From a bacterium (GTDB lineage: Bacteria; UBA8248), in NCBI GenBank assembly GCA_965202625.1, contig CBDBBI010000010.1, positions 352,001 through 416,000 of the forward strand: a stretch of 64,000 nt of DNA, in the 5' to 3' direction. Position 1 is the stretch's first letter. Every line of letters begins with the position of its first letter. Shown here piece after piece: positions 47,973-62,388 of the stretch. The notes beneath the pieces were generated by a model, which was given only the letters and a program-made list of their open reading frames with translations, did no database searches and was not told the DNA's origin. Both the position numbers and the translations under genes were made by a program.

Positions 47973-48965
47973 TCAAGAATCCATCAATTCTTTGAACTTC
48001 TGCGTCAGGGCGGGGATGATTTTTTTATAATCTCCTACGATCCCGTAGCGCGCGCGCTGGAATATGGGTGCATCGGCGTCCGTGTTGATGGCTACGATGT
48101 TTTTACTCGGGCCGGCGCCGACCATGTGCTGCATGGCGCCCGAAATGCCAACGGCAATATAGAGATTCGGACTCACGATCTTGCCCGTTTGCCCCACTTG
48201 CATGGGCGTGGGTGCCCAGCCGGCGTCAACGGCGGCGCGGCTCGCGCCCACGGCCGCTTTCAGAACTTTGGCGAGTTCTTGGAGATATTCAAAATTCTCT
48301 GGTCCCCCGAGGCCGCGGCCCCCGCTCACGACAATTTCCGCATCCTCTAGGCGGACGCCCTCCGCCTCCACTTTTTTCGCCTCCACAAAATTCATTCTCA
48401 TTTCCTCGGCGCCTACCGAAACCCTAATTTCTACGAACTCGCCCCCGCGGCCCTCTTGGATATCGGCTTGGGGCAGAGCTTTCGCGCGTGTTGAAGCGAT
48501 GGAGAGAGAGTCTGTTTTTGAACGAACATGGCTGATCGCGTTGCCTCCATGAACCGGGCGAACGGCGGCGAGTTTTCCATCCTCAAGCATGAGGTCTATG
48601 CAATCATGCGCATAGCTGGCGCCATTTCGGAAGGCGAGCCTAGGCGCGACGTCTCGCCCCACCGAAGTATTGGCGACTAGGAATATGGCTGGCTTCTCCT
48701 CCCCGATGACGGCGTCAATTACTTTCAAATACGCCCCATTGGTATAGCCGTCCAAAAGATCAGCCTCGGCCGCCAAAATCTTGTCGGCTCCCAAGGCGAT
48801 GAGTCCTTTCGCCAACTCCTGGGTCCCGGAGCCGCCGAGGAGGAGGGCGACTAAGGAGCCCTTTTTTTCATCGGCGATTTTTCGCCCGATTCCACAAATT
48901 TCGCTGCTCACGAGCGCGAGCTTATCCCCCGCGCGCTCAGCGAGAACGAGGACGTCATTCGACAT
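47973..48965 (-). CDS. etfA: Electron transfer flavoprotein alpha subunit
   Basis: [17 protein letters not shown] and QVGQTGK...GISGAMQH motifs. Confidence 0.95.
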
Positions 48966-48983
48966 GGCTTCGCTCTTTCTCCC

Positions 48984-49784
48984 TCAAATAATTTTGTCTT
49001 CACGAAGACGGAGTGCCAAAACGCCAGCGGCTTCCTCGAGTGATTCGCCCTCGATGAATTCACAATTTCCGTCGAATACGGGCTGGTATAATTTGGTGAT
49101 TTCGAAGGTGGTCGCTTCTTTTCCCACCAAGCAGCGGTCTATTCCTATATCTTCTGCGCCCCAGACCGGTATTTGCTTGCGCGACGCCATCAATATGCCT
49201 TTGACTGAAGGCAGGCGAGGCGTGTTGATCTCGTTGCTGGCGGTCAGCAGACACGGGGTTGCGACCTCAATGACTTCCAGCCCGTCTTCCAGTACCCGTT
49301 CGCACCGCAGACCTGTGTCCGTTTTTTCCGCTTTTTGAAGCTGGCTCACGCTGGGAACCTCAAGCGCTTCGGCGAGGGCGAGAGCAGTGGTGCCGTAGCT
49401 CCAGTCGCTGCTCAACCTGCCGCAGAGAACGACGTCGAAACTGTCCAGTTTTTGAATGGCGCTCGCCAGAATTCGTGCCGTGCCGAAGGCGTCGGAACCA
49501 TCAAAGGCATCATCCATAAGCAGTATGGCGTCATCGCACCCCATGGCCAGACATTTTTTCAGACCGTCTCGGGCTTTCTTATCGCCGACCGTCATGACGG
49601 TGATTTTTCCGCCGTGTTTTTCTTTGAGGTGGATGGCCGCTTCAACGGCGTTTTCGCAAAAACCGTTGATGACTGGTGAGACGTTCACGGGTGGAATGAC
49701 GTCCATCCTCTCCTCGTCAACCTTAAAATCGCGGGGAGGAATATCCGGGTCTTGTACCTGCTTGATGCAGACGATGATGTCCAA
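48984..49784 (-). CDS. etfB: Electron transfer flavoprotein beta subunit
   Basis: IIVCIKQV, LAMGCD and INTPRLPS motifs; TTG start at 49784 after a GAGGAG RBS. Confidence 0.93.
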   Translation of the reverse strand: MDIIVCIKQVQDPDIPPRDFKVDEERMDVIPPVNVSPVINGFCENAVEAAIHLKEKHGGKITVMTVGDKKARDGLKKCLAMGCDDAILLMDDAFDGSDAFGTARILASAIQKLDSFDVVLCGRLSSDWSYGTTALALAEALEVPSVSQLQKAEKTDTGLRCERVLEDGLEVIEVATPCLLTASNEINTPRLPSVKGILMASRKQIPVWGAEDIGIDRCLVGKEATTFEITKLYQPVFDGNCEFIEGESLEEAAGVLALRLREDKII

Positions 49785-49878
49785 AGGTTTTACTCTCCTC
49801 CGTGTTGGCTGGCATAAATCCATCGTGGTCGCCCGGGACGCGTGGACATGTTCTGCACCCACACAAGGAGACAGCCTA

Positions 49879-49907
49879 AAAATAATGAGATGCAGATAAT
49901 ACGTCAA
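49879..49907 (-). promoter_or_regulatory. Sigma70-type promoter for etfBA
   Basis: TTGACG-17 nt-TATTTT preceded by an A-tract. Confidence 0.5.
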
Positions 49908-49981
49908 CCGGAGACGGCGTTTTTTTTTCGTTTTGCGCTCGCTCCTCGAAAGGGTCGAAAGGGAGCGCGCGCTTTTCTCGT

Positions 49982-50011
49982 TTGACAATAGAAAAATTCA
50001 GACGATAAGAT
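49982..50011 (+). promoter_or_regulatory. Sigma70-type promoter for mrp
   Basis: TTGACA-18 nt-TAAGAT. Confidence 0.5.
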
Positions 50012-50087
50012 GAGATAGAAAGCGAGGCAGTGCGCTGAGAAGCGATTTTCGAGTGAATTTCCCATTTTGGGCGAAAGGATCCCGTCA

Positions 50088-51179
50088 ATGTCCGAGGTAA
50101 CGGAAGCCCAGGTCTTGGAGGCTTTGAGAAGCGTGCGAGATCCTGAAATTGGAGAAGATCTCGTGAGCCTGAACATGATCAAGGATGTGCAGGTTTGTGG
50201 GGACGCAGTCGCCTTTTCGCTGGAATTGACCACTCCCGCGCATCCGCGCAAGGAGGAATTTGAGGATGAGTGCAAGCTGGCCGTCGGCGCCTTGGAGAAG
50301 GTGAATACGGTAAATGTCCGGGTGATGAGTCGTGTCTCCGCAAGACCCTCAATCGCTGGAAAGATGAACGTCGAGGGCGTGAAGAACATGGTTGCCGTGG
50401 CCAGCGGAAAAGGCGGCGTAGGCAAGTCGACCGTGGCGGTGAATATCGCGCTGTCCTTAAGGGGGGAAGGCGCGAAGGTGGGAATTTTGGACGCTGATAT
50501 TTACGGGCCGAGCCAGCCACTGATGCTGGGAATTCCCAAGGCGCAGCCCATCGCCGAGGGGGAAAATAAAATACGACCTTTGGAGGCGCACGGCGTGAAG
50601 GTCATGTCGATGGGCTTTCTGGTTGATGAGGACAGCCCCGTCATCTGGCGTGGCCCCATGGTCATGCGGGCACTGGTGCAATTCTTGAGCGAGACGATTT
50701 GGGGGGAGCTGGATTATCTCATTCTGGATTTGCCGCCCGGAACGGGTGACGCGCAATTGACCATTGTTCAACAAGTCTCTCTGGCGGGCGCCGTTATCGT
50801 CACCACCCCTCAGGACATCGCGTTGCTTGACGCGCGCAAGGGGCTGCAGATGTTCAGAAAGACGGACGTGCCTATCCTCGGTATCATTGAAAACATGAGC
50901 TACTACGAGTGTCCTGCATGTGGGCGCCGCGAAGATATCTTTGATACGGGTGGCGGCGAGAAAGCGGCTGAGCGCTACGATGTCCCTTTTTTGGGTGCCA
51001 TTCCACTCGACGTCAAGGTGAGGGCGGGAGGAGACCTTGGCGTGCCCATCGTGGCCGAAGAGCCAGGGCATCCCACGGCCATGGCGTTTCGCGTGGCCGC
51101 TAGAAGGGTGGCTGAGCAAGTGTCCATCGCCAATGCGTCGGGACCGATAGCTGCGCCAGAGTTGAAGATTATCGGGTGA
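50088..51179 (+). CDS. apbC: Mrp/ApbC/NBP35 Fe-S carrier ATPase with N-terminal DUF59-like domain
   Basis: SGKGGVGKST, DADIYGPS, WRGPM, DLPPGTGD and ENMSxxxCxxC motifs. Confidence 0.95.
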   Translation: MSEVTEAQVLEALRSVRDPEIGEDLVSLNMIKDVQVCGDAVAFSLELTTPAHPRKEEFEDECKLAVGALEKVNTVNVRVMSRVSARPSIAGKMNVEGVKNMVAVASGKGGVGKSTVAVNIALSLRGEGAKVGILDADIYGPSQPLMLGIPKAQPIAEGENKIRPLEAHGVKVMSMGFLVDEDSPVIWRGPMVMRALVQFLSETIWGELDYLILDLPPGTGDAQLTIVQQVSLAGAVIVTTPQDIALLDARKGLQMFRKTDVPILGIIENMSYYECPACGRREDIFDTGGGEKAAERYDVPFLGAIPLDVKVRAGGDLGVPIVAEEPGHPTAMAFRVAARRVAEQVSIANASGPIAAPELKIIG

Positions 51180-51348: not shown

Positions 51349-52296
51349 ATGGCTAAAGTCGTGTTGATCGATCCACTTTATGCGACTCCTGAATGGCGCG
51401 TGACTTCCGATTGGCTGGGTGCTGAACATGAGGTGATCGCACCGGATGCGTTTACTCCGGTAGCGATAGAACCGTTGTTGCCGGATGCGGAAGGCATACT
51501 CACGGTGTTTCGGTCCGTCTCGCGCGAGATGATAGCCATGGTGCCTAATCTGAAGGTTGTGGCCAAGCCAGGCGCCGGAGTGGACAATATCGACCTCCGT
51601 GCGGCGACCGAACGCGGTGTCATGGTGTGCAACGTCGAGGGCATTCGAGGTCGAGCTGTGGCGGAGCATTCTTTTTTCATGGCGTTGTATTTGGCGCGCC
51701 ACGCCTGGATGAGGGGTGATCAAGAGAAATGGGAACACGTGCCGGCGGTGCAATTGGGTGGCAAATCGCTCGGTATCGTGGGCCTTGGCGACATTGGTCG
51801 GAGAGCGGCCCGCATCGGCCATGGTTTTGGAATGGAGTTGCTCGTCAATACGCGGACAGAGGCTCCCTCCTACGTGCCTGAGGCGAATCTCGAGTTCGTG
51901 TCCTTTGACGCGCTTTTGTCGCGATCCGATTTCCTGATTTTATGCATGCCCTTGTCGCCCGAGATGAGAGGAATCCTCAATAAGAAAAATTTACTAAAAA
52001 TGAAGCCGGACGCTATTTTGATCAACGTTTCGAGAGGCCCTGCCGTGGTGAGCGACGATCTGCTGGAAGTGATGCGCGACGGGCACCTTGGCGGCGCAGG
52101 GCTTGACGTCACAGACCCTGAGCCCTTGCCGAAAGACCACGGTTTGTGGGGCTTGGAAAACATCATTATTAGCCCTCACCATGCCTCTCGAACGCCAGAG
52201 ACGCAAACGGCCGCAATGGCTCGCACTGCGGAGAATGTGTGTATGGCGTTGTCTGGCGAGAAGCCCATAAACATCGTCAATCTAGAGGTGCTCTAG
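51349..52296 (+). CDS. D-isomer-specific 2-hydroxyacid dehydrogenase
   Basis: GAGVDNID, GLGDIG, INVSRG, DVTDPEP and SPHHA motifs. Confidence 0.9.
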   Translation: MAKVVLIDPLYATPEWRVTSDWLGAEHEVIAPDAFTPVAIEPLLPDAEGILTVFRSVSREMIAMVPNLKVVAKPGAGVDNIDLRAATERGVMVCNVEGIRGRAVAEHSFFMALYLARHAWMRGDQEKWEHVPAVQLGGKSLGIVGLGDIGRRAARIGHGFGMELLVNTRTEAPSYVPEANLEFVSFDALLSRSDFLILCMPLSPEMRGILNKKNLLKMKPDAILINVSRGPAVVSDDLLEVMRDGHLGGAGLDVTDPEPLPKDHGLWGLENIIISPHHASRTPETQTAAMARTAENVCMALSGEKPINIVNLEVL

Positions 52297-52355
52297 TCCT
52301 CGTCCATCTTTTCCCATGCCGAACAGATTAATATGCAGTCTGGGGCGGAGCCTGA

Positions 52356-53213
52356 ATGCCGTTTGAAGTGGTTGCCTTGAGTCCAGCCTTTTGGTTTTCC
52401 CTTTCAAGCATCATGACCAGAAGAGGGCTGGAGGGCAGTACGCCGCATACGGGGAGTCTGATTGTCCTCTTCATGCAGCTTTTCTTCTTCTCACTTTGCT
52501 TGGTGATGGTGGATTTTGACAACATATCGCTTTCGATCTACTGGCTTGCCTTTCTTGCAGCGGGGCTTTCCTCGCCTGCATTGGCTTTATTGTTTCTGTT
52601 TCGCTCCATCGAAAGAATCGGCGTGGCTCCCACAAGCGCCATCTCGAATACACATGCCATTTTGGGGGCGTTTTGGGCTTTCCTTCTCCTTGGGGAACGT
52701 CCACCCGTCGTGGTGTGGCTTGGCATCCTCTTTGTCGTGGCTGGGATTTCCTGGATGTCGAGCGGGGGAGGCCCGCTCGCAAGAGGGCGGGTGTTGCTCC
52801 TGCCCTTCATGTCCGCTGCTTGTTTTGGGTTCGCACATATGCTCAGAAAAGTGGGACTCGGTGGGATGGACTCGCTCGTTTTCGGGGGATTTTTGCAATC
52901 GCTCGCAGCGTGCACCATTGGGCCGCTGTTTTTAAAGGCGAGCGCGGGATGGCGTCCATTCGTGTTCAACAAACCATCGTGCAGGAATTTTTTCTGGGCA
53001 GGCCTTGCGATGTCGGCCGCTCAGTTGAGTTTGCTGGCCGCCCTGAGTATGGGGGAGGTCTCTCGCGTCTCGCCCTTGGTCGCGACGGTGCCACTTTTCA
53101 CGCTTGTGCTGGCGCCCTTGATTCTAGGGAACAGGGAAAAAATTACCTCGCGCATCGTCGTGGGCGCGCTTTTTACTGTCACCGGCGTGATTTTGGTGAC
53201 TTCGCTTCGGTAG
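52356..53213 (+). CDS. EamA/DMT family transporter
   Basis: About 10 TM helices in two repeats (LLGERP, LGNREKIT). Confidence 0.88.
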   Translation: MPFEVVALSPAFWFSLSSIMTRRGLEGSTPHTGSLIVLFMQLFFFSLCLVMVDFDNISLSIYWLAFLAAGLSSPALALLFLFRSIERIGVAPTSAISNTHAILGAFWAFLLLGERPPVVVWLGILFVVAGISWMSSGGGPLARGRVLLLPFMSAACFGFAHMLRKVGLGGMDSLVFGGFLQSLAACTIGPLFLKASAGWRPFVFNKPSCRNFFWAGLAMSAAQLSLLAALSMGEVSRVSPLVATVPLFTLVLAPLILGNREKITSRIVVGALFTVTGVILVTSLR

Positions 53214-53440
53214 GGACGAATTCATCTCGTCCATGACGCGCGAAAGATATCGCCAGCGTGTTTCCGAAGCTATAAAAAGTAGTTGACAGAATGTGCCGTG
53301 AGCGTTTATTCAGAACTTATGAGTGATTTAAGTAGTTGGGCCGATTCTCCTTGCGATTTCAGAGGCCGCGGGCGTGCCGCGAATCGGGCGCGTATCGCGT
53401 CTGAGAGTCCCCTCTTGATTCGCTCCAGGAGGATGGGGCG

Positions 53441-53797
53441 ATGAGGTCGTCTTCAGCCAAAAATCCTTCCGCTGCGTCTCGCGCCGGTGATATCCTCCGT
53501 CATATTTTTGGAAATCTCGAGTACGGCCTCAACTTTCGCATGTGGGATGGCTCGGCGTTGGCGGTGGGACAAGAAGTGCTCCCCGTCACCGTGGTTTTCA
53601 CGTCGCTTGCCTCTTTCAAGCGCGTTTTGCTCAATCCCCAAGCGGACGGCTTTGCGGAAGCATATTGCGACGGAGAAATCGAATTTGAGGGCGATTTGTT
53701 TGAAGGCATGAAAGTGGCCGATAGTCTTGATAAGATTCAACTGACGATGACGTATAAACTCACGTTCGCTTTGCGCATATGGAAGCTGTCTGAATGA
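53441..53797 (+). CDS. Stand-alone N-terminal domain of a cyclopropane-fatty-acid-synthase-like enzyme
   Basis: FRMWDGS and FAEAYCDGEIEFEGDL match the Cfa N-terminal domain pattern; AGGAGG RBS; ATGA overlap with the next gene. Confidence 0.7.
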   Translation: MRSSSAKNPSAASRAGDILRHIFGNLEYGLNFRMWDGSALAVGQEVLPVTVVFTSLASFKRVLLNPQADGFAEAYCDGEIEFEGDLFEGMKVADSLDKIQLTMTYKLTFALRIWKLSE

Positions 53798-54906
53798 GCA
53801 CTTGGGATGTTCTCATCGTTGGAGGCGGTCCGGGGGGCAGCACGGCTGGCTGGGAGTTGGCAAAGCGGGGCCGGCGCGTGCTGCTCCTTGACGCAGCGAC
53901 TTTTCCACGCGTGAAGCTTTGCGCGGGCTGGGTGACGAAGCAGGTCTTATCAGACCTTGAACTCGCGCCAAATGCATATCCTCATACGATACAGCCGTTT
54001 CAAAGCGTGTTCGTGGGCTATGACGACAAGCTCCTCGAGACGAAATGGAGCGAGCCTGCGAGTTATGGAATCGTCAGGAGCCAATTCGACTCCTATCTTC
54101 TGAGGCGCGCGCGGGAAGAGGGCGTTGAGGTGCAAGAGGGCGTGCGGATACGGGGCGTTGAGAAAACGTCTCGGGGAATGCAAGTGGATACCGGGGATGC
54201 GAAAATAGAGGCTTCTCTCGTCATTGGAGCGGGAGGACATACGTGTCCTGTCGCCAGAGCTTTTGGCGGCGTCTCGCAAAAAGAATCCGTTGTTTTGACG
54301 CAAGAGAGCGAAACGAACGTAGGAGCGGATACGTTGCGCTCCTTGGCGCCTAACTATGGCTTGCCCGAGTTGTTCGCGGAACCCGATTTCAAGGGTTACG
54401 CCTGGTATTTCACCAAGGGAGATTTTTTGAATATCGGCGTGGGCTGTATTGGCAAGCGACCGAGCGTTCATGAGCGACTGGAGACTCTGCTGGACAAATT
54501 TCGCCAAACGGGCAGGCTATCCGCGAAACTCGAACTGACGAAATTCCGCGGCCATGCCTATTCGATCTATCGTCGGCATCTTCGGAGGCCGGCGGGAGAC
54601 ACGTTCGTTTTGATTGGCGACGCTGCCGGACTGGCCAAGGATTTTAGTGGAGAGGGCATTGGTCCCGCCGTCCGTAGTGCGAAAATGGCGGCGGAAGCGG
54701 CGGATGCGTATTTAGAGACAGGGGAGAGTCTCTTTGCGTATGGCGAGGCGATTTCTGCGAAATATGGAAGCGGCGGGGAAGGTATGTTCGACAGGTTAAT
54801 TGACAAGGTTCCGGATAGTGTTCTTTTGGGTGTGGCCAGGTTTATTTGCGGCAATGCCTGGCTGAGGCGCCGATTGGTTTTAGAGGGTGCGTTCGGAATC
54901 GGTTAA
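53794..54906 (+). CDS. Geranylgeranyl-reductase-family FAD oxidoreductase
   Basis: DVLIVGGGPGG, FPRVKLCAG, RSQFD, GYAWYF and GDAAG...GEGI motifs. Confidence 0.85.
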   Translation: MSTWDVLIVGGGPGGSTAGWELAKRGRRVLLLDAATFPRVKLCAGWVTKQVLSDLELAPNAYPHTIQPFQSVFVGYDDKLLETKWSEPASYGIVRSQFDSYLLRRAREEGVEVQEGVRIRGVEKTSRGMQVDTGDAKIEASLVIGAGGHTCPVARAFGGVSQKESVVLTQESETNVGADTLRSLAPNYGLPELFAEPDFKGYAWYFTKGDFLNIGVGCIGKRPSVHERLETLLDKFRQTGRLSAKLELTKFRGHAYSIYRRHLRRPAGDTFVLIGDAAGLAKDFSGEGIGPAVRSAKMAAEAADAYLETGESLFAYGEAISAKYGSGGEGMFDRLIDKVPDSVLLGVARFICGNAWLRRRLVLEGAFGIG

Positions 54907-54925
54907 TCAAAGGTTTGAGGCGACA

Positions 54926-55843
54926 ATGGTGAAAGAGAGAACGAAAGATTTCGACGCCGAGGCGATATCGCATCACTACGATGTGTCCAATACGTTTTAC
55001 GAACAATTCCTCTGCGAAAACATGCTCTACACGTGTGCCTACTACCGTGAGCCCGACGGCGATCTCACCCAGGCCCAGCGTGACAAGATGGACCTTGTTT
55101 GCCAGAAACTCCGACTGTCCCCCGGAGATGATTATCTCGACATTGGCTGTGGGTGGGGCTCTTTAGCGATATGGGCGGCGAAGCGCTACGGCGTGAACGC
55201 AACCGGCGTGACGCTCTCGCGCGAGCAGGCGAAATGGGGCCAGGATTGGGTGCGTCGAGAGGGTCTCGAAGGTAGGTGCGAAATACATCACCTAGATTAC
55301 CGGGATTTTCCGGAGGAGAGGACTTTCAAGAAAATTTCCGCCATCGGAATCATTGAGCACATCGGCATTGCGAACTATCCGAGCTATTTCGCTTCCGTGA
55401 GGAAGCGTCTGCGCGATGGGGGTTTGTTCCTGAATCATGGAATTACGGCGAATAAATTTTGGAACCGCACGAGCCAATTTGACTTTCTGTTGCGCAACGT
55501 TTTTCCCAACGGCGAATTGGACAACATCTCTCATATTCAGGATGTGATGGAACTCGCGCGTTGGGAGATTCTGGACGTGGAGAGTCTAAGGCTTCACTAT
55601 GCGCGCACATGCAAGCAATGGTATGAGAAATTTGAAAAAAATACGCAAAGAATCAAAGAGTTAGTTGGTGAGCGCACCTATCGGATTTATCGAATCTGGC
55701 TTATTTGTTCGGCTAGCGCGTTTTTTTCAAATTCCTTGGGGCTCTATCAAGTTTTGGCGCAAAAATATAAAAGAACCTATTGTCAGGATGCCCCCACGAA
55801 TCGCGAGGATATATATAAAGCGCTTTTTGCCCTAGATGGTTAG
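54926..55843 (+). CDS. Cfa-family SAM-dependent lipid methyltransferase, catalytic domain only
   Basis: ISHHYDVSN, YTCAY, LDIGCGWG, TLSREQ, EHIG, LNHGI and HYART motifs. Confidence 0.9.
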   Translation: MVKERTKDFDAEAISHHYDVSNTFYEQFLCENMLYTCAYYREPDGDLTQAQRDKMDLVCQKLRLSPGDDYLDIGCGWGSLAIWAAKRYGVNATGVTLSREQAKWGQDWVRREGLEGRCEIHHLDYRDFPEERTFKKISAIGIIEHIGIANYPSYFASVRKRLRDGGLFLNHGITANKFWNRTSQFDFLLRNVFPNGELDNISHIQDVMELARWEILDVESLRLHYARTCKQWYEKFEKNTQRIKELVGERTYRIYRIWLICSASAFFSNSLGLYQVLAQKYKRTYCQDAPTNREDIYKALFALDG

Positions 55844-55867
55844 CTCTCGTTTGCGGAACCATGTGGC

Positions 55868-56860
55868 ATGAGTTCTCATAATTCCTTGGGTGTCCCCTCA
55901 TTCTCCCCCGCTTGGTATTGCTTGGGCCCTCACCTTCAAAGCGTATGGGGGTATTTTTTTCGAAAACATCCTCAAATCCCTTGGCGGCGGGAGCGTTGGG
56001 ACACGCCTGACGGCGATTTCCTCGACATTGATTTTCTGGATACGGGCGCGTCGGACGCTCCGACCTTGCTCGTTCTCCATGGGCTGGAAGGATCTTCCGG
56101 CTCGCATTACGTGCGCGGCACGGCCGAGAAGGCGAATGTGCTTGGCTGGAGGACGGCGGCATTGAACTTCCGCTCATGCAGCGGCGTCGAGAATCGAAAG
56201 CCTCGATTCTACCATTGCGGGGAGACGGGAGATTTGGATTTCGTGGTGAATCGCATTCTCGAGAGATTTCATGGGCCTCTGGCGTTGGTGGGATTCTCTC
56301 TCGGGGGGAGCGTCCTGTTGAAATGGCTGGGAGAACATGGAGAGACGGTTTCATCGCGGATATGTGGGGCTGTGGGAATTTCCGTCAGTTTCGCTCCTGC
56401 TGCGTGCGCTCGGGTTCTGGATTCCTTGCGAGGCTACTTGTTCAGATGGCATTTACTCACTATGGCAAAGCGAAAAGCCTATCGTCTTTACGAATCGTAC
56501 CCCCGACTCTTCGAGATAGACAAAGTGAGGGGTGCGCGGACTTTCCATGAATTCGATCGCCTGCTCATCGCGCCCTTGTATGGTTTTCGCGATGAGATAG
56601 ATTATTATGAAAAAGCCGACTCCTCCCCATATTTGCCCCGTGTGTGCGTGAGAACACTCATCCTCTCATCGGAGGATGACCCCATCGTTCCGTCCCATGT
56701 TTTTCCCCGAAAGCAAATAGAGGAATCGAGGTGGCTCAAGGGTATTTTGTTGAAAAAAGGGGGGCACGTGGGTTTTGTGTCGGGGCGGGACGTCCGCTCG
56801 CCGATTTACTGGGGTGAGAATCGCGCGCTGGAATTTCTGGAAACCTGCCTGAAATCATGA
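55868..56860 (+). CDS. YheT/ABHD-family alpha/beta hydrolase
   Basis: HGLEGSS, GFSLGG nucleophile elbow, DDP and GGHVGF motifs. Confidence 0.9.
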   Translation: MSSHNSLGVPSFSPAWYCLGPHLQSVWGYFFRKHPQIPWRRERWDTPDGDFLDIDFLDTGASDAPTLLVLHGLEGSSGSHYVRGTAEKANVLGWRTAALNFRSCSGVENRKPRFYHCGETGDLDFVVNRILERFHGPLALVGFSLGGSVLLKWLGEHGETVSSRICGAVGISVSFAPAACARVLDSLRGYLFRWHLLTMAKRKAYRLYESYPRLFEIDKVRGARTFHEFDRLLIAPLYGFRDEIDYYEKADSSPYLPRVCVRTLILSSEDDPIVPSHVFPRKQIEESRWLKGILLKKGGHVGFVSGRDVRSPIYWGENRALEFLETCLKS

Positions 56861-56909
56861 TTTGTGAAGCCCACGAGGGGAGCCAGAGGGGCTTTCGTCG
56901 TCGAGTGCG

Positions 56910-57983
56910 TTAAACTTTTCTGCTGTGCTCTCTCGCACCTAATCGCTTGTGGCGTTCTATCGCGCAGTGGATGAGCCGATCCAGCATTTCCGCGTAGGGG
57001 ACGCCAGTTGCCTGTATCATTCGGGGGTATCCGCTCAGTCGTGTGAACCCGGGGAGCGTGTTCACTTCGTTGATATAGATTTCACCCGTTTTTTCGCGGT
57101 AAAAGAAATCCACGCGGGCGAGTCCCGAACAACCTAAAACCCGGAACGCGCTCCGCGCGTAGGAGCGGGCATTATTGGCGACCGACTTTTCTAAGGGCGC
57201 GGGAATCCGCAATTCGGCGTGCCCTTCTTCGTATTTTGCCTCATAGTCGTACCAGCCGGATTTTGTCTTGATTTCCATGAGCGGGCTGGTGATGAGGCCG
57301 CTTGTCGATGGCCCCTCAAGCACGGCGCATTCCAGCTCTTGGCCCCGAGCGTGTTCTTCAATCAAGACTTTGTGGTCAAATCTTAGAGCGTCGCGCACGG
57401 CGTCATAGAGCTCCTGCGGGCTTTCCACCTGGTGAACGCCAACGCTGCTGCCTGAGGAGGAGGGTTTGACGAATAACGGATAGCCGATTTTGGATGCCGT
57501 TTCCTCCTGAATGGAATTTTGGTTCTTCTCCCATGTCTCTGCATACAAGGTAATCGCTGGCAAAACGGGCAGCCCCGCCGCGTGCAGAACCGCCTTGGCC
57601 ACAGCTTTGTCCATCGATATTGCGGATGACGCGCATCCAGAACCCACGAATGGAACCTCCGCCAACTCGAACAACCCTTGGAGGGTGCCGTCCTCCCCGA
57701 AAGCGCCGTGAATGATGGGAAAGAATACGGCGATATTGAGGCTTTCATTGTTCGAGGCGTATCGAAGTGCTTTTCCATTTGGAGTGCCTGAAAAAAGTAC
57801 CTCCTCACCCGCCTCGGCCGGCGCATTCTGGCTGGGAAGGGAGAACCATGCGCCTGATTTCGTGATGAATATGGGGTGGATGTCATATTTTTGGGGGTCC
57901 AACTCCGCCATAATGGCTTTGCCCGAGTTGAGGCTCACCTCGTGCTCCGTGGATCGGCCGCCGAATATCACGCCGACTTTCAT
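56910..57983 (-). CDS. ddl: D-alanine--D-alanine ligase
   Basis: GGRSTEHEVS, HGAFGEDG, GSSVG, YDYEAKY and NEVNTLPG motifs. Confidence 0.95.
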   Translation of the reverse strand: MKVGVIFGGRSTEHEVSLNSGKAIMAELDPQKYDIHPIFITKSGAWFSLPSQNAPAEAGEEVLFSGTPNGKALRYASNNESLNIAVFFPIIHGAFGEDGTLQGLFELAEVPFVGSGCASSAISMDKAVAKAVLHAAGLPVLPAITLYAETWEKNQNSIQEETASKIGYPLFVKPSSSGSSVGVHQVESPQELYDAVRDALRFDHKVLIEEHARGQELECAVLEGPSTSGLITSPLMEIKTKSGWYDYEAKYEEGHAELRIPAPLEKSVANNARSYARSAFRVLGCSGLARVDFFYREKTGEIYINEVNTLPGFTRLSGYPRMIQATGVPYAEMLDRLIHCAIERHKRLGAREHSRKV

Positions 57984-58057
57984 TTTGCCTGAGCATGGCC
58001 TCATAGTGGGAATATCCTGAGCGTGGACGATGTATGTGACCCTCTTTGATAGGGTAG

Positions 58058-58630
58058 TCAGCGTATCAGTTGCGAGAGGAATTTGAAGTCCCCCGTGCCG
58101 GCCACTTGCAGCAAGTCGAACAGTGCCTGTTCGGTCGTGGTGGGAACGGCACCGGCGCGTTCAAGGGTTAATAATCCTGTACGCCAGTTTAGCTTCGAGC
58201 GTGAGCAGAGCGCATCGGCCACCACATGAACGATAAAGCCGTTTTCCAATAAATCGAGTGCCGTTTGATAACAACAGACATGTGTCTCCGCTCCGGTGAG
58301 CAGTATTTTTGTTTTTCCAGATGCGCGCAGGCGCGGCAAAAATGTCTTCTCCCCGCAACAGCTGAACGAAATTTTTGCGATCGGTGAGAATCCGGGTATT
58401 GTCGTTTTGACTTCATCGACCGTGGGGCCGAGTCCCTTGGGGTATTGCTCGGTGACGAAAACTGGAAAATCAAGCCGAGCCGCCGCTCCGGCCAGTGTCT
58501 GAATACGAGCGATGACCTGGGCGCGAACGTTTTCTCTCATGGCGGCCATGAGTCTTTCTTGCGCGTCGACAACGAGCAATAGACATTCTTCTGGCCTCAG
58601 CCGAAATGCGTCAACGCTTGGGCTTGGCAT
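58058..58630 (-). CDS. Isochorismatase-family hydrolase (YcaC/ISOC-like)
   Basis: VDAQERL, TEQYPKGLG and GAETHVCCYQT motifs. Confidence 0.9.
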   Translation of the reverse strand: MPSPSVDAFRLRPEECLLLVVDAQERLMAAMRENVRAQVIARIQTLAGAAARLDFPVFVTEQYPKGLGPTVDEVKTTIPGFSPIAKISFSCCGEKTFLPRLRASGKTKILLTGAETHVCCYQTALDLLENGFIVHVVADALCSRSKLNWRTGLLTLERAGAVPTTTEQALFDLLQVAGTGDFKFLSQLIR

Positions 58631-58785: not shown

Positions 58786-59775
58786 ATGCATGGGAAGGCG
58801 AAAGTTGTCCTCACCGATTACGTTTGGGAATCTTTGGACGTGGAGAACAGGATTTTAGGAGATATGGCCGAGATTGTCGCCTTGCAGGCGAAGGCGCCAG
58901 CGGAATTTTTGTCCGAGGCTGCTGATTGTGACGCCATACTGAACACCTATGCCGGTCCGATCACGAAAGAGGATATGGCGAAAATGCCGAATTGCAAGAT
59001 TATCGCGAGATACGGCATTGGGGTGGATACGATCGACTTGGACGCCGCTACGGAGGCGGGCATCATCGTCACGAATAATCCTGCTTATTGCATTGAAGAG
59101 GTTGCGGAGCACACAATGGCACTCTTGCTCGCATCGGCGAGAAAGGTTGTTTTTTATGACAGGCAGGCGCGCGCGGGCAAATGGGAGGTGCCGCCAGGTA
59201 AGCCGATGTTCCGACTGACAGGCGCCACTCTTGGGCTTGTGGGTTTTGGGAATATCGCCCGGATGGTGGCCGCTCGCGCCGCCTCATTCGGAATGAACGT
59301 TTTATTTAGCGATCCTTTCGTGGAGGAGGGGCGGTTTGATGCGCCGGGCAAGCGGCTGGAACTGACCGAAACGCTTGCGCAGTCTGACTTTGTCTCCATT
59401 CACCCGCCGCTTATACCTCAAACGCGTGGAATGATGAACGATGAGGCTTTCTCACAGATGAAAAACACCGCTTTTCTCATCAATTGCTCTCGCGGACCCA
59501 TAGTTGACACAGACGCCCTAGTCCGCGCGTTGGATGCAGGCGAGATCGCCGGGTGCTCTCTGGATACAACCGACCCGGAACCTCTGCCCGATCCGCACCC
59601 TCTGCGTGGCCGTGAGAACGTGATCATCAACCCGCACGTAGCCTGGTACAGTGAGCAATCAATGGTAGGGCTCCAGCAGGGCGCACCCAATGAGGTCAGG
59701 CGCGTTTTGTTGGATGAATGGCCTGTGAACGTGGTAAATAAAGACGTTAGGGGAAGGAGCAGAATTGGCCTGTAG
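58786..59775 (+). CDS. D-2-hydroxyacid dehydrogenase, CtBP-like subgroup
   Basis: RYGIGVD, GFGNIA, NCSRG and PHVAWYS motifs. Confidence 0.9.
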   Translation: MHGKAKVVLTDYVWESLDVENRILGDMAEIVALQAKAPAEFLSEAADCDAILNTYAGPITKEDMAKMPNCKIIARYGIGVDTIDLDAATEAGIIVTNNPAYCIEEVAEHTMALLLASARKVVFYDRQARAGKWEVPPGKPMFRLTGATLGLVGFGNIARMVAARAASFGMNVLFSDPFVEEGRFDAPGKRLELTETLAQSDFVSIHPPLIPQTRGMMNDEAFSQMKNTAFLINCSRGPIVDTDALVRALDAGEIAGCSLDTTDPEPLPDPHPLRGRENVIINPHVAWYSEQSMVGLQQGAPNEVRRVLLDEWPVNVVNKDVRGRSRIGL

Positions 59776-60192: not shown

Positions 60193-60747
60193 ATGGACAC
60201 TCGTTTGAAATCTCCTCAGGTGAAGTTGCCCGCTGATTATGAGGCAGAGGCGAAACAGAACAAAGGGTTTATCGACCGCAGACGGTTTATGAACTACACC
60301 GGATGGCTGGGTATCCTGGGCAGCCTCCAAATCGCGCTGCTGGGGTTTTTGAGATTTATGTTCCCGCGCGTTTTATTCGAACCCCCCACCGAATTCAAGG
60401 CGGGTAATCCCGGAGACTACGCTGTGGGCGTGGTGGATACCCGATATGTGAACAGTGAGCGCGTATGGATTATTCGAGAGCAGGAGGGGTTTTACGCGTT
60501 GAGTGCAATATGTACGCATTTGGGGTGTACTCCGAAATATCTGGGTTCTGAGGATAAGTTCAAGTGTCCGTGCCACGGAAGCGGATTTCGCAGGAGCGGC
60601 GTGAATTTTGAGGGTCCCGCTCCGAGGCCGCTAGAGAGGCTGAAAATCGGTCTGGCCGAGGACGGGCAGCTACTCATTGATAAGGGCAAAATTTTTCGCC
60701 ATGAAAAAGGGGAATGGGAGAATCCGAGCTCTTTTCTCTTTATCTAA
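60193..60747 (+). CDS. qcrA: Rieske Fe-S subunit of a cytochrome bc complex
   Basis: Tat-type DRRRFM plus TM helix; CTHLGC and CPCHGS boxes; GPAPRPL. Confidence 0.93.
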   Translation: MDTRLKSPQVKLPADYEAEAKQNKGFIDRRRFMNYTGWLGILGSLQIALLGFLRFMFPRVLFEPPTEFKAGNPGDYAVGVVDTRYVNSERVWIIREQEGFYALSAICTHLGCTPKYLGSEDKFKCPCHGSGFRRSGVNFEGPAPRPLERLKIGLAEDGQLLIDKGKIFRHEKGEWENPSSFLFI

Positions 60748-60789
60748 AGATTATCTGTTCGTTTGATGGCGAGCGGGTGGAGGTACTAG

Positions 60790-61578
60790 ATGTCCAGTTT
60801 GAAAGAACGCTTCAACCTAGAGCAGGTGAAAAGAAACGTTCTCGACTCCCAGGTGTGGAGATCGATGTTCCGGCATGGGTATGAAGATACTCCGAGGAAC
60901 CGTGTTCTCATGGTCGTGGATAATCTATGGCTGCACCTCCATCCCACGAAAATTAGGCGTCACGCCATTCGAATTCGTTTCACGTGGTGCATGGGTGGTG
61001 TGACGTTCTTGCTGTTCTTGTACCTTGTCGTCACCGGCGTTGTATTGATGTTTTACTATCGGCCAGTGGGCGAATACGCCTATGCCGACATTAAATTCCT
61101 AGAGTTTGACGCCCCCTTCGGCATGTTTATGCGCAACATGCATAGATGGGCGGCACACGCCATGGTCATCGCCGTGTGGCTGCACATGCTGCGCGTATTT
61201 ATGACGGGTTCCTACAAGCCGCCTCGTGAGTTCAACTGGGTGATCGGGGTGTTGTTGCTGACGCTCACCCTCTTGCTCAGCTTCACAGGCTATTTGCTTC
61301 CTTGGGATCAGTTGGCCATCTGGGCAGTTACGGTCGGAACCAACATGGCGCGTGCCACCCCCCTATTGGGGCATGAGGGCCCGTTTGCGGATATTGTGGG
61401 TGTTACACCCCGTTTTGACGCGCGCTCGGTTCTTCTCGGAGGAACCATCGTTGGCCCGCCCACGCTTCTGCGTTTCTACGTGCTACATTGCATTGTGGTT
61501 CCTTTAATAGCGTCGATTTTGATGATGGTGCATTTTTGGAGAATCCGCAAGGACGGGGGCATCTCCGGGCCTTTGTAA
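60790..61578 (+). CDS. qcrB: Cytochrome b6-like N-terminal subunit
   Basis: WCMGG heme ci Cys, [25 protein letters not shown] and YVLH...VHF motifs. Confidence 0.93.
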
Positions 61579-61599
61579 ATTTCCGCACATTGAGGAAAG

Positions 61600-62388
61600 G
61601 TGAGGACATTGGCCAAGGAAGACAAGGTGGTCGGATCTGCCGACGACATGGCAAAAACGAGCTGGGAGCGGGTGAACGACAAGGTTCACGTGTGGCCCTA
61701 TCTAACGCGTCTGGAGTTTATGTGCGCAATCATCATCACGTTGTTTTTGGTGGTTTGGTCCATCGTTATCGACGCGCCGCTGGAGGAGCCGGCGAATCCT
61801 TCCGTCACGCCCAACCCGTCGAAAGCCCCATGGTATTTTTTGGGACTACAGGAGATGCTCGTGTATTTCGACCCTTGGATGGCGGGCGTCGTCCTCCCCA
61901 CGCTCATCATCGTGGGCTTGATGGCCATTCCCTATATTGACGTGAACCCCAAGGGGAACGGCTATTACACCTTTCATGAGCGCAGATTCGCCATCATCAC
62001 CTTCTTGTTCGGTTTTTTGGTCTTGTGGGTGTGGATGGTGGTGCAGGGGACTTTTCTGCGGGGTCCCGGCTGGAACTTCTTTATGCCCTGGGAGTATTGG
62101 GACCCCCATAAAGTCGTGGCGCTGACGAACGTAGATTTACCCTATATGATAGGCTTCAGAAGCTACTGGGGCCAAGCAGCGGCGGGCACTGCGATGGTCG
62201 TCCTTTGGTACGCCACCATTCCGGCATACTATATTTGGCGGCGAGATAGGATGGCGAATGTAGGTCTCGTCCGATATGGACTGAAAGCGTTTTTGTATAT
62301 GACGATGATGGGACTGGTCGCGAAAATGACGCTGCGCATCGGACTTAATGTGAAATACGTTCTTGTGACTCCATGGTTTAATATCTAG
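61600..62388 (+). CDS. Cytochrome b subunit IV-like protein
   Basis: VWP...EF and ANPSVTPNPSKAPWYFLGLQE (PWY variant of PEWY); extra C-terminal TM helices. Confidence 0.85.
   Translation: MRTLAKEDKVVGSADDMAKTSWERVNDKVHVWPYLTRLEFMCAIIITLFLVVWSIVIDAPLEEPANPSVTPNPSKAPWYFLGLQEMLVYFDPWMAGVVLPTLIIVGLMAIPYIDVNPKGNGYYTFHERRFAIITFLFGFLVLWVWMVVQGTFLRGPGWNFFMPWEYWDPHKVVALTNVDLPYMIGFRSYWGQAAAGTAMVVLWYATIPAYYIWRRDRMANVGLVRYGLKAFLYMTMMGLVAKMTLRIGLNVKYVLVTPWFNI

Follow-up and report, generated by a model that had tools for sequence, protein, structure and literature searches.

A Cfa-like methyltransferase encoded in two pieces, with a geranylgeranyl reductase family gene at the break

Why would a bacterium encode a two-domain lipid-modifying enzyme as two separate proteins, with the gene of a third protein placed between them? 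The question is raised by a bacterial genome stretch of 64,000 nucleotides (NCBI GenBank assembly GCA_965202625.1, contig CBDBBI010000010.1, positions 352,001 to 416,000 of the forward strand; GTDB lineage UBA8248), here called the window, of which positions 53441-56860 carry four genes on the + strand. In order, they encode a stand-alone N-terminal domain of the cyclopropane fatty acid synthase (Cfa) type, a flavin adenine dinucleotide (FAD)-binding reductase of the geranylgeranyl reductase (GGR) family, a Cfa-type catalytic domain, and a YheT-like alpha/beta hydrolase. By analogy with characterized enzymes, we give somewhat better than even chances to the reading that the locus, probably from a member of the Nitrospinota, is a fissioned TmpBA-type pathway, which would make mid-chain methyl-branched fatty acids. 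Both the chemistry and the gene pairing are already known from TmpBA. What appears to be new is a conserved fission of the methyltransferase, with the reductase gene at the break point.

An enzyme in two pieces

How secure is the reading of the genes themselves? The four open reading frames (ORFs) are co-oriented, closely spaced, and free of internal stops, just as a first-pass annotation of the window had described them. That annotation also gave the first gene, for a protein of 118 amino acids (aa) at 53441-53797 (+), its own ribosome-binding site and a coupling to its neighbor, and both are present. A Shine-Dalgarno-like AGGAGG, read from the sequence, lies at 53427-53432 (+), 8 nucleotides (nt) before the ATG, and the TGA of the gene overlaps the ATG of the reductase gene as ATGA at 53794-53797. 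The reductase gene (53794-54906, +, 370 aa) is followed after 19 nt by the catalytic-domain gene, and 24 nt separate the latter from the hydrolase gene (55868-56860, +, 330 aa). The catalytic-domain ORF is also open from GTG 54887 (54887-55843, 318 aa). Its true start is most likely ATG 54926 (54926-55843, +, 305 aa, beginning MVKERTKDF), because homologues in most loci begin there and a GAGG sits 5 nt upstream. The claim of a separate catalytic gene, split off at the domain junction, is kept with a corrected start. The junction spacing fits an operon, and the three genes would be translated as a coupled unit. Scans of positions 52200-58200 were uninformative, with no sigma-70-like promoter sites against 3.0 expected and 7 terminator-like sites against 8.3 expected.

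The 118-aa protein passes the cut-off of the Pfam family DUF7884 (PF25371), with 27.9 bits against 27, and covers positions 5 to 83 of the 393-position NCBIfam CfaB profile. A search for proteins of near its length gave 26, the window's own included, and all 26 carry PF25371; 25 of them are 117 to 119 aa long and the remaining one is 93 aa. When aligned, these homologues are 52 to 76% identical to the query and share an almost invariant C-terminal RIWKLSE. A profile of the near-length proteins matches residues 40 to 82 of the Aquifex Cfa synthase 7qos (E = 0.0028). Among solved structures, the AlphaFold model of the 118-aa protein (mean predicted local distance difference test score, 88.9) matches two Cfa synthases best, 7qos (E = 4.5e-4) and 5z9o; of its 433 matches at E <= 10, 7qos_A alone reaches E <= 0.001. 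By these comparisons the 118-aa ORF is a real Cfa N-domain protein, as annotated, and more than a chance ORF. Pfam already recognizes the domain, as DUF7884.

The other piece, the 305-aa protein, matches the Pfam CMAS family (PF02353) over its full length (295.3 bits, profile positions 4 to 273 of 273) and covers positions 93 to 393 of the CfaB profile. The two pieces thus tile a single Cfa (5-83 plus 93-393 of 393). The best solved relatives of the catalytic protein are 7qos, over residues 110 to 379, then 5z9o and 6bqc. Since the alignment of the N-domain profile ends at residue 82 of 7qos and that of the catalytic protein begins at residue 110, the break falls in the interdomain linker, and the earlier claim of a split at the domain junction holds in both the profile tiling and the structural alignment.

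Would an enzyme cut at this point still hold together? In Escherichia coli Cfa, residues 100 to 120 form a disordered linker, and the N and C domains, when each is produced as its own polypeptide, remain together during affinity purification (PMC9851988, citing Hari et al. 2018; this and all papers below are cited for the passages available). These two observations make a natural fission at the linker structurally plausible. The window enzyme resembles E. coli Cfa in its two-domain architecture, with the break at the position of that linker. The E. coli enzyme differs in being a single chain that forms cyclopropane rings and lacks a partner reductase, and the window catalytic domain reaches 247 bits against the cut-off of 400 of the E. 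coli-type Cfa model. The domain falls below the cut-offs of the NCBIfam equivalogs for characterized cyclopropane synthases, NF008686 (247.4 versus 400 bits), NF040703 (322.1 versus 650 bits), and NF053839 (224.6 versus 600 bits).

A one-chain DUF7884 plus catalytic architecture is not what the window holds; each domain has an ORF of its own, on either side of the gene for the 370-aa protein, and likewise in 26 other loci (described below). A frameshift or an assembly error as the cause of the split was considered and is excluded by the complete gene between the halves and by the 26 other assemblies.

How common are N-domains that stand alone? A search of 1.84 billion representative proteins with the N-domain profile gave 276 matches at E <= 1e-3, 33 of them at E <= 1e-10, and the top-ranked ones are almost all 105 to 130 aa long. 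The best 150 of the 276 were classified. Among these, 46 are complete-looking proteins of 135 aa or less that reach the domain end, 22 are short with partial domain coverage, 26 are fragments with part of a catalytic domain, 43 are longer proteins without a catalytic-domain match, and 12 are full-length fused enzymes. The last is an odd fragment, P0096 (182 aa), in which residues 36 to 104 match the N-domain profile and residues 100 to 180 match an internal part of the reductase profile; a chimera or a frame shift in the gene call could explain it. An earlier search for longer fused relatives of the 118-aa protein scored none of its 286 candidates, which is weak evidence; fused relatives later came from the profile search and from L029, described below. 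In the Atlas, DUF7884-only clusters of 107 to 118 aa are commonest in Nitrospinota and Methylomirabilota, and an additional 116-aa cluster is labeled Pseudomonadota. Judging from these sequence collections, stand-alone N-domains are common.

The reductase at the break

The middle gene, called a GGR-family FAD reductase in the first-pass annotation, is just that: its product matches the GGR family model TIGR02032 from end to end (172.7 bits, cut-off 158.8, profile positions 1 to 297 of 297). This is the sole curated cut-off that it passes, and it lies far below those of the equivalog-level models for BchP/ChlP, digeranylgeranylglycerophospholipid (DGGGPL) reductase, and MenJ. The best solved relatives are the GGRs of Sulfolobus and Thermoplasma, at only about 60 bits.

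The catalytic features of GGRs are an active-site cysteine, the motif YxWxFPx7-8GxG, and a GGG or GEG motif (PMC6309074, PMC12004948). All three have counterparts in the window protein. C43 aligns with the active-site cysteine of the Sulfolobus enzyme SaGGR (Cys47) and is invariant in 28 sequences, as are Y202, W204, G215, G217, and G286-E287-G288; F206 is nearly so. The second motif reads Y202-A-W204-Y-F206-T207, seven residues, then G215-V-G217, with threonine in place of proline. The third is the GEG variant, which has been reported for the GGRs of the photosynthetic organisms Rhodobacter, Synechocystis, and Arabidopsis (PMC6309074). The window reductase is thus like SaGGR (3atq/4opc) and the Thermoplasma enzyme TaGGR (3oz2) in its FAD-binding fold, active-site cysteine, YxWxF...GxG, and GEG motifs. 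It is unlike them in length (370 aa versus 397 to 453 aa), in the threonine just mentioned, and in its predicted substrate, which by analogy would be a methylene-branched acyl chain and not a polyprenyl chain.

Homologues of the reductase at 53 to 58% identity come from Deltaproteobacteria, Thermodesulfobacteriota, Binatia, and Limnocylindria. The best 120 matches include no named protein of Desulfobacter, Marinobacter, or Thiohalospira, and a tblastn search of the reductase against plasmids gave no match.

Conservation of the gene order

Is the arrangement peculiar to one assembly? To the contrary, a scan of one genome per species yielded 29 related loci, and by protein and translated searches of these, 26 of the 29 have the N-domain, reductase, and catalytic genes intact and in this order. 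The intact loci comprise L001-L012, L014-L020, L022, and L023, labeled Nitrospinota or Nitrospinaceae where a label is present; L021, labeled Tectomicrobia; and L024 and L026-L028, labeled Rokubacteria/Methylomirabilota. The order is conserved across three phyla, and the first-pass annotation, which would have been undone by a split unique to this assembly, is upheld on this point. The contig of L013 stops after 43 codons of the reductase gene. L025 keeps the order, with one change of frame each in the reductase and the catalytic gene (L025:7335-9367), which could be pseudogenization and decay or assembly indel errors.

The remaining locus, L029 from a member of the Planctomycetaceae, shows what an unsplit relative looks like. 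A single 451-aa ORF carries both DUF7884 and CMAS and is followed by a 37%-identical reductase; over 84 aa, the 118-aa protein and the N-terminal region of this fused protein are 36% identical. About 1.1 kb upstream of the fused gene, L029 also has an archaeal-type S-adenosylmethionine synthetase gene on the opposite strand (L029:4263-5468, - strand; PF01941, 482 bits).

The junctions differ in detail between the lineages. In all 23 loci of Nitrospinota and Tectomicrobia, the N-domain and reductase genes share 4 nt at stop and start, and a short gap (19 nt in the window) leads from the reductase stop to the catalytic start. The Rokubacteria/Methylomirabilota loci have a 1-nt gap between the N-domain and reductase genes (5 of 5), and in the 4 intact loci it is the reductase and catalytic genes that share 4 nt. 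Their identities to the window proteins are about 36 to 40% for the N-domain, 49 to 51% for the reductase, and 53 to 57% for the catalytic domain, and the order is kept. In L011 and L012 the three genes are intact though they lie about 5.4 kb and 3.8 kb, respectively, from the EamA gene, the upstream synteny being broken. In Rokubacteria loci the N-domain gene is immediately preceded by luciferase-like monooxygenase genes (L024:5869-6876, L026:5792-6799, and L026:2854-3951).

Did the split arise once? In a maximum-likelihood tree of catalytic domains, a branch supported at 100/99 separates 27 split sequences from 11 fused ones, the latter being 14 candidates minus P0106 and P0122 (partial catalytic domains) and P0142 (no catalytic match). 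Because the tree is rooted arbitrarily and its fused members were picked by N-domain similarity, a single origin is compatible with the tree and not proven by it. A natural split with a reductase gene at the break is unmentioned in the literature found, which consists of openly accessible papers and was not searched for the split by name or for DUF7884. The locus parallels, in nature, the E. coli Cfa that was split in the laboratory, and it is a case for gene fission with operon-encoded assembly, in which a partner gene sits at the fission point.

A proposed fissioned TmpBA-type pathway

What might a split Cfa-like enzyme and a GGR-type reductase do together? The nearest precedent, which the first-pass annotation had named correctly, is the tmpBA operon, in which the gene for TmpB, a Cfa homologue, precedes that for TmpA, a flavoprotein resembling archaeal geranylgeranyl reductases (PMC7791843). 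Four of five tmpBA operons yielded 10-methylenepalmitate in E. coli, and the tmp operon is found in 5 of 5 listed 10Me16 producers and 0 of 4 non-producers (PMC7791843). The hosts are Desulfobacter, Desulfobacula, Marinobacter, and Thiohalospira, and the characterized relatives methylate C14 to C18 monounsaturated fatty acids (PMC7791843). No second paper on tmpBA was found in the openly accessible literature.

Like tmpBA, the window has a Cfa homologue gene adjoining a co-oriented gene for a GGR-like flavoprotein in one operon, and the fused relative in L029 has the exact B-then-A order. By eye, the reductase and Desulfobacter TmpA have in common CAGW, GAGG..CPV, GYAWY, and GDAAGL..GEGI, in the sequence passages available. 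The window is unlike tmpBA in that its methyltransferase is two polypeptides with the reductase gene between them (N-A-C instead of B-A), and in its host phyla; likeness to the characterized TmpA and TmpB was judged by eye on such passages. A second known route, the BfaAB/TmsAB system of actinomycetes, makes 10-methylstearate (tuberculostearic acid) and likewise consists of a Cfa-like methylenation followed by a flavin-dependent reduction (PMC7791843). There, the reductase BfaA belongs to another flavoprotein family, without meaningful homology to TmpA, the gene order is A-B, and NADPH is used (PMC7791843). From its TIGR02032 match and that statement about families, the window reductase is of the GGR type and not the BfaA type.

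By analogy with these systems, the pathway would run as follows. The 118-aa N-domain and the 305-aa catalytic protein would assemble non-covalently into an ordinary two-domain Cfa-like enzyme. With S-adenosylmethionine, the reconstituted enzyme would add one carbon onto the cis double bond of a phospholipid acyl chain, and the product would be a methylene (or methyl-alkene) intermediate. The GGR-family flavoprotein would then reduce the C=C bond of this intermediate, leaving a saturated methyl branch, as in 10-methyl-16:0; the position of the branch is likewise predicted from the known systems. Is such a reaction within the reach of a GGR? These enzymes normally saturate methyl-substituted C=C bonds, and a methylene- or methyl-alkene-branched acyl chain would be a chemically similar substrate.

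There is a lipid that fits. 10-Methylhexadecanoic acid is a typical membrane lipid of "Ca. Methylomirabilis" (PMC6581649), in keeping with the phylum label of L027, one of the five Rokubacteria/Methylomirabilota loci. No gene assignment for the 10-methyl lipids of Methylomirabilis was found in the openly accessible literature.

Mid-chain methyl-branched acids such as 10-methyl-16:0 serve as biomarkers for sulfate reducers and Methylomirabilis-type methane oxidizers. Outside the actinomycetes, what is known of the genetic basis of this branching comes from one study, whose reductase step never worked. The three-gene signature of Nitrospinota, Tectomicrobia, and Rokubacteria/Methylomirabilota is an easily recognized genomic marker with which to predict producers, and it supplies fresh reductases for testing. 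It also yields testable predictions on methyl-branched lipid biomarkers in nitrite oxidizers and their relatives.

Several points weigh against the pathway as proposed. TmpA activity went undetected in both E. coli and yeast, according to the passages available, for which the authors propose oxygen sensitivity or a missing electron carrier (PMC7791843); even for the prototype, then, the reduction step is inferred. The product of the three window genes is itself a prediction from analogy. By eye, Desulfobacter TmpB is more like E. coli Cfa than the window catalytic domain is, in the sequence passages available, and the window methyltransferase may not be an orthologue of characterized TmpB. Reductase homologues are widespread, with 4650 of 8000 scored candidates at E <= 1e-10. 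The best family and structure matches of the catalytic protein are bona fide cyclopropane synthases, and we know of no validated sequence discriminator between methylene- and cyclopropane-forming enzymes. Finally, no paper that connects Nitrospina with 10-methyl fatty acids or cyclopropane turned up in full-text searches. In 2001, Lipski and colleagues reportedly found mainly straight-chain 14:0 and 16:1, and no methyl-branched acids, in cultured Nitrospina gracilis.

Other explanations of the gene order

Could the freed N-domain do more than complete its own enzyme? In the fold search with its model, the SCP2 and UbiJ-SCP2 lipid-binding domains rank next after the Cfa synthases (E of 0.01 to 0.1), which would fit a three-protein metabolon, the idea of the first-pass annotation. 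An SCP2-like N-domain would be a common subunit that presents the acyl chain to the methyltransferase and afterwards to the reductase, and the reactive methylene intermediate would never be released by either. The position of the reductase gene between the halves, its translational coupling to the N-domain gene in all 23 Nitrospinota/Tectomicrobia loci, and the many clusters of stand-alone DUF7884 proteins described above are in line with such a role. The SCP2 matches are weak, however, with low TM-scores (0.32 to 0.44), and the N-domain of E. coli Cfa stays bound to its own catalytic domain (PMC9851988). In L029 and in published TmpB, moreover, the N-domain is covalently tied to the methyltransferase, yet both pair with the same kind of reductase. 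A complex prediction for the N-domain, the catalytic protein, and the reductase (the scored partner) gave a score of 0.00 against a mark of 0.32; run without controls, it is no answer and speaks neither for nor against binding. On the whole the shared subunit seems unlikely. The simpler reading is plain reconstitution, with the N-domain bound to the catalytic domain, which is favored because of how the split E. coli enzyme behaves and because fused relatives are paired with the same reductase. If the shared-subunit reading were true, the interleaved, coupled gene order would serve the assembly of a three-protein machine with an oxygen- or donor-sensitive reductase, and Nitrospinota would be an unrecognized marine source of 10-methyl-type fatty acid biomarkers.

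Perhaps, instead, the enzyme is split and otherwise an ordinary cyclopropane synthase, and the reductase is an unrelated protein, such as a quinone or polyprenyl reductase, whose gene was trapped between the halves. The catalytic domain, whose best matches in NCBIfam and among solved structures are cyclopropane synthases, agrees with this, as do the known substrates of the GGR family, which are isoprenoids, quinones, and sterols (PMC6309074, PMC12004948), and the partial matches of the MenJ and BchP models to the reductase. The far higher cut-offs of these two models and of the DGGGPL reductase model argue the other way. An unrelated gene would also not be expected to persist, tightly abutting, across Nitrospinota, Tectomicrobia, and Rokubacteria, in a layout that is kept while N-domain identity drops to the values given above, nor would the same pairing be expected with a fused Cfa in L029 and in published tmpBA (PMC7791843). 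A trapped bystander is about as unlikely as the shared subunit.

Less likely still is an isoprenoid-type lipid as the substrate, which would be methylated and then reduced at a double bond, much like the C-24 methylation and reduction of sterols. CMAS-fold enzymes do methylate diverse olefins, and in Myxococcota the double bonds of sterol side chains are reduced by homologues of GGR (PMC12004948). The characterized relatives with the same pairing act on the monounsaturated fatty acids mentioned above (PMC7791843). Both pieces of the window enzyme, moreover, the N-domain included, match the models of Cfa, which acts on fatty-acyl phospholipids, along their full length.

Last and least probable is an oxidative pathway of the furan-fatty-acid type, in which the flavoprotein would desaturate or oxygenate the methylated chain without any reduction, as Cfa-like methylation followed by flavin-dependent steps reportedly does in Rhodobacter; weak matches of the reductase to flavin monooxygenase and halogenase families recall such chemistry, and it is countered by the one curated cut-off passed being that of the GGR family, by the retained GGR catalytic motifs, and by the lack of any further oxygenase gene conserved beside the three genes.

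The hydrolase and the wider neighborhood

Does the fourth gene belong with the other three? The first-pass annotation had counted the hydrolase into the lipid system. It is YheT-like by its match to PRK10985 (E = 2.7e-61), in which residues 11 to 329 align with positions 4 to 323 of 326 and the 207.7 bits stay below the 267-bit cut-off; it also matches Abhydrolase_1. In Nitrospinota and Tectomicrobia, its gene comes next after the catalytic gene in all 20 loci long enough to judge, L005 and L010 being too short. None of the 5 Rokubacteria/Methylomirabilota loci has it, nor does L029 with its fused gene. In the Nitrospinota/Tectomicrobia loci, the Ddl and isochorismatase-family genes also keep their places in each of the 18 whose flank extends to them, as do a second 2-hydroxyacid dehydrogenase gene in 17 loci and an upstream pair of 2-hydroxyacid dehydrogenase and EamA genes in 11. 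In 8 loci, 258 to 599 nt of repeat-bearing DNA separate the hydrolase gene from the catalytic gene, versus 7 to 28 nt in 10 others. Because the whole neighborhood is syntenic, the gene is absent from the Rokubacteria/Methylomirabilota loci and L029, and a spacer intervenes in 8 loci, the hydrolase is not counted in the system. Its adjacency is best explained by shared ancestry of the neighborhood, and the case for it as a lipid-pathway member is weak.

The spacers lie at L007:9404-9923, L011:9404-9894, L012:7535-8029, L014:9404-9993, L015:9404-9803, L016:9404-9809, L017:9404-9661, and L018:9404-10002. They share short repeats in both orientations, 74 to 100% identical, which suggests small repetitive or mobile insertions.

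Upstream by 2 to 5 kb, at 47973-49988 (-) and 50067-51179 (+), lie genes for electron transfer flavoprotein (ETF) alpha and beta and for an Mrp/NUBPL Fe-S ATPase, which are syntenic in 8 related loci (L002, L004, L008, L009, and L019-L022). Going by proximity alone, ETF is a conceivable electron donor for a GGR-type reductase. The region is bracketed by paralogous D-2-hydroxyacid dehydrogenase genes at 51349-52296 and 58786-59775 (both +), whose products are about 35% identical to each other and which are both conserved in related loci. Further downstream, 60193-62388 (+) encodes a Rieske protein and then a cytochrome b split into N-terminal (b6-like) and C-terminal (subunit IV-like) genes, that is, a b6f-type complex III. 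Scans of the whole 64-kb window gave neither a tRNA gene nor an Rfam match above threshold, and its GC skew is positive in 30 of 32 2-kb windows.

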